DNA of 64,000 nucleotides, from the NCBI RefSeq assembly GCF_988242995.1, contig NZ_OZ547043.1; one strand, given 5' to 3'. Position numbers: made by a program. How positions within the stretch are numbered: position 1 is the stretch's first letter; every line of letters begins with the position of its first letter. Shown in pieces: positions 15,001 to 18,000 of this stretch.

Positions 15001-18000
15001 TATTGTTGAACAGGGCCAGCCACTGGCGCAGCTTAACCGCACCAAAACGGAATCCGACGTCCAGGAAGCAATGTCGCGGCTGTACGCGGCGCTGGCAACC
15101 TCGGCGCGGCTGCGGGCGGAAGTGAGTAATAAACCGCTGGTCTTCCCTGACGAACTGAATAAATTCCCCGAACTTATCGAGTCGGAAACGGCGTTGTACA
15201 ACACTCGCCGCGATGGGCTGAACAAAGCCACCACCGGGCTGACGCAGGGGATTAGCCTGGTCAACCGCGAACTGGCGATGACCCAGCCGCTGGTAAAACA
15301 GGGGGCGGCGAGCAGCGTTGAAGTGCTGCGCCTGCAACGCCAGGCCAATGAACTGGAAAACAAACTCAGCGACGTGCGCACGCAATACTACGTTCAGGCG
15401 CGCGAAGAGTTAGCAAAAGCCAATGCGGAAGTGGAAACCCAGCGTTCGGTGATCCGTGGACGGGAAGACTCCCTCACCCGGCTCAACTTTACCGCGCCGG
15501 TACGTGGCATTGTTCAGGACATTGACGTCACCACGGTTGGCGGCGTTATTGCCCCCGGTGGTAAACTGATGACCATCGTGCCGCTGGATGAGCAACTGCT
15601 GATCGAGGCAAAAATCTCCCCGCGCGATGTGGCGTTTATCCATCCGGGGCAAAAATCGCTGGTGAAAATAACCGCCTACGATTACTCCATCTACGGCGGC
15701 CTGCCGGGAGAAGTGGCGGTGATATCACCAGACACCGTGCAGGATGAAGTACGGCGCGATGTTTATTACTATCGGGTGTACATTCGCACTTTCAGCAACC
15801 ATCTGGAAAACAAAAGCAAACAGCAATTTCCGATATTTCCCGGCATGGTGGCGACGGTCGATATCCGCACCGGCAAAAAAAGCGTGCTGGATTATCTGTT
15901 GAAACCCTTTAATAAAGCACAGGAGGCGTTGCGCGAACGATGAACATTAGCGATGTAGCAAAAATTACCGGCCTGACCAGCAAAGCAATCCGCTTCTATG
16001 AAGAGAAGGGGCTGGTGACGCCGCCGATGCGTAGCGAAAATGGTTATCGAACCTACACGCAGCAGCATCTCAACGAACTGACCTTACTGCGCCAGGCGCG
16101 CCAGGTGGGCTTTAACCTGGAAGAGAGCGGCGAACTGGTGAATCTGTTTAACGACCCGCAGCGTCACAGCGCCGATGTAAAACGGCGCACCCTGGAGAAA
16201 GTGGCGGAGATCGAACGACACATTGAGGAGCTGCAATCCATGCGCAACCAGCTGTTGGCGCTGGCGAATGCCTGCCCTGGCGATGACAGCGCCGACTGCC
16301 CGATTATCGAAAATCTCTCCGGCTGCTGTCATCATCGGGCGGGGTGAAAATCAGTTAATCCCCGTTTGCACCGAAAGAATATGCTGCAAACTTTCTACCA
16401 TTATGCGCCCCGATTGAAATAAGCCTTCCTGGATTTCATTGTTAACATTCACAGCGTGAACCAGGGAGGCTAATAACACCACTTGCAAGAAGGCAAAAAT
16501 AAACGCACCGATAATCATAATATGCGTCAGGGGGATTTTCCTTTGCTCTTTCATTTTAAATAACCCACAAACTGACCTTCCTTCATTAAGGCGACTTTTC
16601 CCGTGTGGTGATAAACAATGACGTTATAAAGACCTGACTGATAAACAGTGGCATCTTTATTGTCTTCATCAATTGCACATAATGAATCATTGAGATAAGC
16701 AAAGTTCTTACTGCTCATTCTAAAGGTCATGCCAAATCCTTTATAAATAGATTTTTTAGCGGCCTGGGCATGTTGTGCGGCTTCTGCATTTTTAAATGCC
16801 TGCGCTTCTGATGCACTTAAAATAGCCGCCTGACGCTGTTGTTCTGCGAGATAACAGGTGTCATGGCTGACGCCCTGCGCCTGGCAATCTGCGATGCGGG
16901 AAGTGGGTGAACTACAGCCAGCCAGTAATATAACCGCCAGCAGGGAAAACGATTTAATGGAGCTATTCATCATTGTTAACCTTAAATAATGTACGGAAAA
17001 TTGCGAATAAGAAATTGCTGTTAAAATTAGAACGAATATCCCACGCCGACACCCGCACCGAAATCAGATTGTGTATCCGCAGAAATACCTGCTTTAAGTA
17101 CCGTATGCGTTCCGGCATTAAAAGATGTTCCTACAGACACCGCAGATTCACCGTTGTACGTTCCCGCTCCCGCTGACACCATCATCAAGTCACCGGTTTT
17201 CACCTGTGGTTGTGAGGCGATAGCGATGGCAGATGCAGTTCCCGCATTGGCTTCTTTACGATTGTCCTCAACTTCGTTTTTCAGAGAATCGAAATGGTTA
17301 TTGAGCGTGTTAATTTGTTGGCTGTTATCTGCGACCCGTTTTTGCGTGTTGGTTAACTGTTGCTGCGTTTGTGCGGAATCTTGTCTCAGACTTTCAATTT
17401 GCTCATGTGCCTGGACAGACTTCTGCGCCAGACTTTGCATTTGTTTATCGTATTGAGCCCTTTCTTTTTGCTGTTGTGCTGCCACATCGGTTGTCAGTGC
17501 ATTCATTTTCTGCCCTTGTTCCGTGGCAGTGCGCTGATTAGCCTCATTTTGAGCCGCCAGTCTGGCATTAATCATCTCCTGATAATGCGCAGTATTTTGC
17601 GTATCTCCAGTCGCGGCGAGCGTTTTTTGTGTGGCTACGATCTGCGCCTGTTGCTCTGTAATTTGCGTTTGCTGGGCATCAGTTACCGCAGACTGTCGGG
17701 CGTTGATCATGCTCTGATAACGGGCGGTTGTCTGTACATCACCTGTAGCGGCAACGGTTTTTTGTCCTGCGTCAGGATCTGTCTGGACAGTGGGAGTCTG
17801 AGTGGTATCAGGTGTTTCAGAAGGGATGTAGTGATGTTCAGTCAAATAGGTATACGCAGCGGGGCTGTTGTCTGTGCGTTCTAAAAAGCGGGTAATCTTC
17901 TGCTCAATCTCCGATTGCGACATGCCAGAGTTAATGGCTGAAAGCTCTGTTGCCGCCGCTTCAATGGTATCACCAGCTAAAACAACAGGGCTGGATGTTG

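Follow-up and report, generated by a model that had tools for sequence, protein, structure and literature searches.

A Probable Promoter of the Copper Regulator Gene cueR inside the O-Island 28 Adaptor Gene, and the Likely History of Their ATGA Junction in Escherichia coli

Organization of the Locus

The subject of the present analysis is the junction between cueR, the gene of the Cu(I)-responsive MerR-family regulator, and an upstream gene for the periplasmic adaptor of a type I secretion system (T1SS), located in a 64,000-nt stretch of contig NZ_OZ547043.1 (RefSeq assembly GCF_988242995.1), which is referred to here as the window. At 15938-15945 the window reads cgATGAac, such that the cueR start codon (15940-15942, + strand) lies over the TGA stop codon of the adaptor gene (15941-15943), the two genes sharing the ATGA of 15940-15943. 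The locus is the junction of O-island 28 (OI-28) of enterohemorrhagic E. coli (EHEC) with the core copper regulator cueR.

The adaptor gene (14768-15943, + strand) encodes a 391-residue protein of the HlyD family, equivalent to hlyD28 (Z0635), which scores 327.7 bits against TIGR01843 (cut-off 208.65), with residues 185-391 aligned to positions 217-422 of the 422-position profile, and also matches Pfam HlyD_3 and HlyD_D23. Its surroundings are those of a T1SS. Directly upstream is the T1SS ABC (ATP-binding cassette) permease/ATPase gene (hlyB28 equivalent, 12609-14771, + strand; TIGR03375, 836 bits, full length), whose stop codon overlaps the adaptor start in another ATGA. This is preceded by the 3' part of the gene of a giant, repetitive, T1SS-secreted adhesin (12-12605, + strand), recognized from the open reading frame (ORF), the RefSeq annotation of the O157 locus, and the literature (PMC12758282). 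The adhesin gene continues past the left end of the window, and its equivalent is rtxA28/rtxB28 of O-island 28, annotated as "BapA-related adhesin SiiEA". In O157 a tolC-family gene stands at the island start. On the other side of the junction, the 135-residue CueR (15940-16347, + strand; Pfam MerR_1 and MerR-DNA-bind) scores 308 bits against NF007590 (cut-off 244), with residues 1-135 on positions 1-135 of 135. Since the match begins at residue 1, the cueR ATG at 15940 is confirmed.

The 4-nt overlap is also annotated by RefSeq and its Prokaryotic Genome Annotation Pipeline (PGAP) in O157:H7 and further strains, with 959 complete E. coli genomes sharing the arrangement. A preliminary description of this DNA had reported that the cueR start overlaps the stop of an HlyD-like gene, and the sequence, the ORFs, the full-length CueR profile match, and the RefSeq annotation all bear this out. 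Overlaps of this type are common: six ATGA start/stop overlaps between pairs of long ORFs are present in the 64-kb window, among them those of the ABC and adaptor genes (14768-14771) and of ybbJ and qmcA (19412-19415). The only oddity is that the adaptor and cueR are functionally unrelated. The overlap, real and already annotated, marks a junction of an ordinary type with a tidy evolutionary past.

In O157:H7, ybaT is followed after 337 bp by the tolC-family gene and then by the ~20-kb adhesin gene, the ABC gene, the adaptor gene, and cueR. The window covers the adhesin 3' part, the ABC and adaptor genes, and cueR of this locus, with tolC28 and the ybaT end lying outside, and over this part the genes and their order are those of O157, with near-identical sequence. 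Compared with O157, both proteins, the adaptor (by tblastn) and CueR, show 100% identity at a DNA identity of ~96%, which points to purifying selection on both genes. OI-28 of EHEC O157:H7 has been described as tolC28-rtxA28-rtxB28-hlyB28-hlyD28 (Z0608-Z0635), an RstA-activated, Ca2+-responsive T1SS/RTX (repeats-in-toxin) adhesin system with a promoter upstream of tolC28, RstA and Ca2+ acting on all five genes together (PMC12758282, December 2025). That study regards the island as acquired and does not mention cueR.

A Probable cueR Promoter inside the Adaptor Gene

A transcription start site (TSS) for cueR has been mapped in EHEC EDL933 by Cappable-seq. The + strand TSS at 604687 was detected in 8/8 conditions, with three replicates each and RRS (relative read score) values of 4.2-9.0, and is the only TSS assigned to EDL933 cueR (604847-605254) (PMC10469882, supplementary files 6 and 8). 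It falls on nt 1012 of the adaptor gene and precedes the cueR ATG by 160 nt, and coordinate mapping on NZ_CP008957 places its equivalent, an A, at 15780 of the window (+ strand). In EDL933 the TSS is the last base of tattactatcgggtgt[A], and the window differs by one spacer base across -45 to +20. We infer from this near-identical sequence that transcription starts at 15780 in the window strain as well.

Independently, a position weight matrix (PWM) scan ranks ATGAAG-17-TACTAT first among the sigma70-like sites of 15600-15945 and puts the TSS at 15779. In this candidate promoter (15744-15772, + strand), assigned from the PWM and the published TSS, the -35 hexamer ATGAAG (15744-15749) and the -10 hexamer TACTAT (15767-15772) are separated by a 17-nt spacer, and 7 nt lie between the -10 hexamer and the A(+1). 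Hexamers and spacing of the sigma70 kind are in this way found upstream of a mapped 5' end, the TSS having been measured in the 96%-identical EDL933. To compare the upstream region among strains, 17 genomes were aligned, 9 island-less and 8 island-bearing, and both hexamers are invariant in 8/8 island-bearing genomes. A simple consensus promoter scan of the + strand of 15300-16600 gave no match, and the site, being seen by the PWM scan and not by the consensus scan, is a moderate one. The preliminary description had considered that the cueR promoter might lie inside the 3' end of the adaptor gene, at 15700-15940; the equivalent of TSS 604687 falls within this interval.

Translation signals are also present within the adaptor gene. 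A perfect AGGAGG Shine-Dalgarno (SD) sequence (15921-15926, + strand), identified from the sequence and codon analysis, is formed by the adaptor codons Q-E-A 13 nt from the cueR ATG and is invariant in 17/17 aligned genomes. It is likely that in island-bearing strains cueR is transcribed mainly from the sigma70-type promoter ATGAAG-17-TACTAT in the adaptor coding sequence, with a TSS at 15780 and a 160-nt unstructured leader, and that it is translated from its own AGGAGG.

Two further regulatory elements were considered and discarded. The 160-nt leader gave no Rfam match near the gathering score, and its fold is not more stable than those of shuffled sequences (z = +1.6), which speaks against a regulatory RNA. 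As to autoregulation by CueR, a search for CueR-box-like patterns gave matches at chance level, 0 of them in 15500-15940.

The junction has the geometry of a coupled gene pair, in which the stop overlaps the start, both genes are on the same strand, and no terminator-like site is found on the + strand between the adaptor and cueR. Because no terminator intervenes, read-through and termination-reinitiation are structurally possible. One could then envisage cueR mainly as the last cistron of an RstA/Ca2+-activated tolC28-adhesin-ABC-adaptor transcript, with reinitiation at the overlapping AUG, such that copper sensing would be tied to adhesin secretion. The suboptimal 13-nt SD spacing agrees with such a scenario, as does the joint RstA/Ca2+ response of the five OI-28 genes (PMC12758282), which makes read-through into cueR plausible. 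However, the TSS at -160, within the adaptor gene, is found in 8/8 conditions and the tolC28 TSS (579751) in 6/8, the operon promoter is ~25 kb distant, cueR is preceded by a perfect AGGAGG, and 4458 genomes, described below, express cueR without the upstream operon, from behind an adaptor remnant that is frameshifted and untranslatable. We therefore consider it unlikely that cueR depends mainly on the operon. Operon or translational coupling appears possible but not needed, given the TSS inside the adaptor gene and cueR's own AGGAGG. The suggestion of the preliminary description that cueR is tied to the T1SS operon loses its force, by the standard set there, with the TSS at 15780, although read-through may still occur. 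With the intragenic promoter as the principal source of cueR transcripts, RstA-activated operon read-through and termination-reinitiation would be possible extras rather than requirements.

The Island-less Strains

Among 5426 complete E. coli genomes, 5424 are hit by a 1.4-kb BLAST query spanning the adaptor-cueR junction, and in 959 of them the match covers at least 80% of the query length. An intact adaptor is present in these 959 genomes, and 4458 have a K-12-type ybaT-remnant-cueR junction. In island-less genomes the homology starts at query position 846-849, which corresponds to ~15846 of the window, 94 bp upstream of the cueR ATG. Judging from the BLAST breakpoints, the alignment, and the PGAP pseudogenes, the last ~94 nt of the adaptor gene (15846-15939, + strand) are kept in island-less E. 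coli as a frameshifted remnant. In BL21, ECC-1470, and six more island-less genomes, PGAP annotates a 98-bp pseudogene here ("frameshifted; incomplete; missing N-terminus"), which overlaps the cueR start through the same ATGA, while K-12 MG1655 has the same remnant sequence with no feature annotated. The junction and a 1-nt deletion in an A-run are identical in 9/9 aligned island-less genomes.

The left edge of the remnant (±3 nt) coincides with the right junction of a ~25-kb deletion (size in O157 coordinates), the left end of which lies ~30 bp past the ybaT stop. The deletion spans tolC28 to nt ~1078 of the adaptor gene and is found in ~82% of E. coli. Since the 94-nt remnant is genuine adaptor sequence, the island-less state is a deletion derivative and not an empty insertion site. 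On this comparison of genomes, island-less E. coli go back to a ~25-kb deletion that left the ATGA within its scar.

The preliminary description had placed the island boundary exactly at the cueR start and had proposed a comparison with the region upstream of cueR in strains lacking the island. What these strains have there is not a clean boundary but the frameshifted adaptor remnant with the same ATGA. As a limit of presence and absence the proposed boundary fails, since homology begins at ~15846, 94 bp upstream of cueR, and the ATGA is retained; it holds only as the end of the T1SS-derived sequence, where the adaptor stop codon and the cueR ATG overlap.

Seven fixed differences separate the island-less from the island-bearing samples, at -93, -88, -86, -75, -58 (the deletion), -51, and -48. 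Six of the 45 positions in the distal half of the remnant differ, versus 1 of 49 in the rest, a clustering that is suggestive only (Fisher p = 0.05).

Origin of the Junction and of Its Signals

A scan of one genome per species yielded 77 adaptor homologs with 56-73% identity, from genera including Enterobacter, Cedecea, Lelliottia, Rahnella, and Acinetobacter. They align over the last 80 residues without gaps, except for one row with an internal gap, and all 77 terminate in ...EA(L/M/F)RER-stop, at the same residue as the window adaptor. This shared end, together with the TIGR01843 match up to the last profile position, shows that the last 94 nt are real adaptor sequence, and the adaptor-derived sequence ends precisely where its stop meets the cueR ATG. 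The 77 loci in other genera have no cueR within 6 kb of the adaptor, and many of these homologs have a hairpin after the adaptor stop. The two genes adjoin in three Escherichia loci only, those of Escherichia sp. E1V33, E. whittamii, and one E. coli, so that the adjacency is specific to Escherichia.

These data also bear on the possibility that the K-12 arrangement is ancestral and that the island inserted ~94 bp upstream of cueR, the adaptor ORF reading into core DNA. Such an origin would agree with the literature, which treats OI-28 as acquired (PMC12758282), and with its patchy distribution in E. coli (959/5424 genomes). It would not explain why the last 31 codons are conserved adaptor sequence, ending identically in 77 homologs and matching TIGR01843 to its final position, nor why 1 nt is missing from the K-12 copy and four of its changes would be non-synonymous, as in a decaying remnant, nor why the intact fusion is present in E. 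whittamii and Escherichia sp. E1V33. These comparisons contradict an insertion at a K-12-like site, to which we give hardly any credence.

The signals that would serve cueR are made of adaptor codons, ATGAAG of D-E-V, TACTAT of Y-Y, and CAGGAGGCG of Q-E-A. In the set of 77 homologs, which have no cueR downstream, TACTAT occurs in 23 and ATGAAG in 15, and the promoter score at the homologous position equals or exceeds the Escherichia value in 11. At the SD position, GAGG or better is found in 42/77 and the full AGGAGG in 6/77. An Escherichia-specific optimization of the intragenic promoter or of the SD sequence was rejected in view of the 11/77 scores, the 23/77 TACTAT, and the 6/77 AGGAGG. The promoter and SD motifs are by-products of conserved adaptor codons, the adaptor 3' end being, to all appearances, already suited to express any gene fused behind it. 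Built from conserved codons, the signals would have been largely available once the fusion had occurred.

The following history is consistent with these observations. The ancestral state would be a copA-cueR divergon as in Salmonella, where the two genes form a simple divergon (PMC1526738), and the T1SS cluster would have come to lie between them later, in the Escherichia lineage. The native stop of the adaptor would then have been fused onto the cueR ATG, displacing the terminator found after the operon in most homologs of other genera, and the operon 3' flank and the ancestral cueR 5' region would have been lost at this step. Shared (A)TGA microhomology offers a possible route for the fusion, of which the ATGA overlap would be the relic. 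Finally, one ~25-kb deletion, now in ~82% of E. coli, would have taken the -160 promoter and left the 94-nt remnant.

A Candidate Proximal Promoter in K-12-Type Strains

K-12-type strains lack the -160 promoter, since the deletion has its right junction downstream of it, at -94. For MG1655 a cueR TSS is listed at -19 relative to the ATG (RegulonDB v10.5, in the compilation of PMC10469882), at a position equivalent to 15921 of the window, the first base of the AGGAGG. The supplements of the SMRT-Cappable-seq work, checked for a K-12 TSS, do not contain cueR. A PWM site of K-12, TTGAAT-16-TAACAA, predicts a TSS 1 nt from -19. Its equivalent in the window (15888-15915, + strand) reads TGGATT ... 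TAATAA and has a weaker -35 element, in the adaptor codons L-D-Y. Two of the fixed differences are in this -35 region, G→T at -51 and T→A at -48 (from island-bearing to island-less). The O157 proximal site has a PWM score of <2.1, and the window allele TTTAAT at the proximal -10 position scores 5.0. No -19-equivalent TSS is listed for EDL933 in the 8 conditions (PMC10469882).

We have also considered whether the 5' end at -160 could be a weak, pervasive intragenic start, and whether the proximal (-19) region could serve cueR of island-bearing strains just as it does in K-12. Non-canonical TSSs number in the thousands in the EHEC study, with others in the adaptor gene at 603894 and 604481/2 (PMC10469882), the -160 motif stems from conserved codons and is equally good in the 11 homologs mentioned above, and the window allele TTTAAT could serve a proximal -10 element. 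Against this stand the lack of a listed -19-equivalent TSS in EDL933, the occurrence of 604687 as the sole cueR TSS in all eight conditions, and the low score of the O157 proximal site. We regard such a pervasive start as decidedly improbable.

With the -160 promoter serving the island-bearing strains, the K-12 data raise the possibility of promoter turnover, in which the deletion removed the -160 promoter and a proximal promoter was created or strengthened in the unconstrained remnant by the G→T change at -51, together with T→A at -48. In intact strains the proximal -35 bases are fixed as TGGATT by the L-D-Y codons. We put this forward tentatively, as the support is circumstantial, consisting of the matched TSS positions and of the fixed differences with their clustering in the distal half (p = 0.05). 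If true, it would be a natural, population-wide, compensatory birth of a promoter in a gene remnant, with two promoter states segregating in E. coli.

Transcripts may also reach cueR from further upstream in K-12, where no terminator-like site is found between ybaT and cueR, so that read-through from glsA-ybaT is possible; a ybaS-ybaT-cueR operon was predicted in an older comparative paper. Separately, K-12 ybaT contains a strong intragenic sigma54 binding site on the sense strand (motif CTGGCACTGGTTTTGCT), for which cueR is named as the downstream gene, 679 bp off (PMC4591121, Table 2). In island-bearing strains this distance would be ~25 kb.

Taken as a whole, the account of an intragenic cueR promoter, a fusion, and a later deletion is in our view probable. 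Several points weigh against it. The TSS was measured in EDL933 and not in the strain of the window, and a fusion or mutation test of ATGAAG-17-TACTAT was not found in the searched literature. With a PWM score of 5.76, in about the top 1% of window positions, the promoter is a moderate site. The 13-nt spacing between SD and ATG is above the optimum, which leaves room for a contribution of coupling on long transcripts. The K-12 TSS at -19 is second-hand, taken from RegulonDB v10.5 through PMC10469882, and the order of events, including the fusion and its microhomology, rests on inference.

Variability at and around cueR

Over the 408 nt of cueR, the window differs from K-12 at 18 positions and from O157 at 22, and O157 differs from K-12 at 22, the sole non-synonymous difference among the three being N103D. 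Such very high synonymous divergence, next to nearly unchanged proteins, suggests that the haplotypes of this locus are old and recombine.

Natural disruptions occur on either side of the junction. E. coli SCPM-O-B-8794, an island-bearing strain (L008:6001-7083), has an independent frameshift near the adaptor 3' end (...GKKSVLWIIC-stop), its adaptor being a pseudogene and its cueR intact. In the urine isolate E. coli E25, cueR is cut by an IS1 insertion and annotated as missing its C-terminus, making this a natural cueR-disrupted strain.

A protein cluster at 90% identity that contains CueR (2601 members) also includes 391-residue HlyD28 proteins, one of them as its representative. CueR and HlyD28 share no sequence, and presumably some assembly contains an adaptor-CueR ORF, fused or wrongly called, that links them in a chain. 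The cueR frame has stops at 15910-15912 and, in the window allele, at 15913-15915, and hence a fusion of the adaptor with CueR would require a frameshift located within the last ~25 nt.

On the minus strand, the 3' end of cueR contains a match to 10 of 12 sigma70 consensus positions, ATGACA-18-GATAAT (16303-16332), which is conserved in K-12 (locus positions 5357-5386). The EHEC study lists an antisense TSS downstream of cueR, 605353(-), at ~16446 of the window, in 3/8 conditions (PMC10469882). The site and this TSS could represent antisense transcription into cueR.

Between cueR and ybbJ, at 16348-18950, there is a second segment that varies among strains. It contains a 67-residue ORF (16351-16554), a lipoprotein gene (16551-16973), and the gene of a 338-residue YadA-family autotransporter adhesin (17027-18043), all on the minus strand, and a gene for a 120-residue hypothetical protein on the + strand (18410-18772). 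The segment is missing in K-12 and BL21, where the cueR stop abuts ybbJ, and is present in O157. It is also found in at least one strain without OI-28 (WP2-W18-ESBL-08) and so varies independently of the island.

Implications

The global copper sensor of E. coli would have two promoter architectures, depending on the presence of OI-28. This is relevant wherever K-12 findings on cueR regulation are applied to EHEC or uropathogenic E. coli (UPEC), and for biosensors that use the cueR upstream region. OI-28 is usually called an acquired pathogenicity island, while the remnant shows that K-12-like strains are without it through secondary loss. In EHEC, the lambda-Red delta-hlyD28 and delta-OI-28 mutants already published would lose the mapped cueR promoter and possibly the SD sequence, and side effects on copper homeostasis should therefore be controlled for; such polar effects were apparently not considered in that work (PMC12758282). 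Promoter turnover, if it took place, has the corollary that these mutants may be polar on cueR. The general picture of overlapping genes and internal promoters is unchanged by these results.

Comparison with Known Systems

The trpE-trpD and trpB-trpA pairs of E. coli have 4-nt ATGA overlaps with translational coupling. The adaptor-cueR junction shares with them the identical overlap geometry, the common strand, and the lack of a terminator between the genes. It differs in that its partners are functionally unrelated, cueR has its own mapped TSS and SD sequence, and in most strains cueR is expressed without a translatable upstream partner.

The internal promoter in trpD of the trp operon is an intragenic promoter that drives a downstream gene. 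As in that case, the putative cueR promoter has its -35 and -10 elements and the TSS inside the upstream ORF, and the long leader consists of upstream coding sequence. Here, however, the gene served belongs to another regulon, and the motif appears as a by-product of the D-E-V and Y-Y codons, also in homologs with no such gene downstream.

In the Salmonella divergon, the same regulator, with the same N-terminus MNISDV, is encoded directly opposite copA, a comparison drawn from PMC1526738. Escherichia differs in having glsA-ybaT and, ancestrally, the T1SS cluster between copA and cueR, as a result of which the cueR 5' region consists of adaptor-gene sequence.

The closest system is OI-28 of EHEC itself (PMC12758282), which has the locus, the gene order, and the ATGA junction to cueR in common with the window. 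The present analysis departs from its published description in two respects: the island-less state is found to be a deletion derivative, and the mapped TSS of cueR is placed inside hlyD28.

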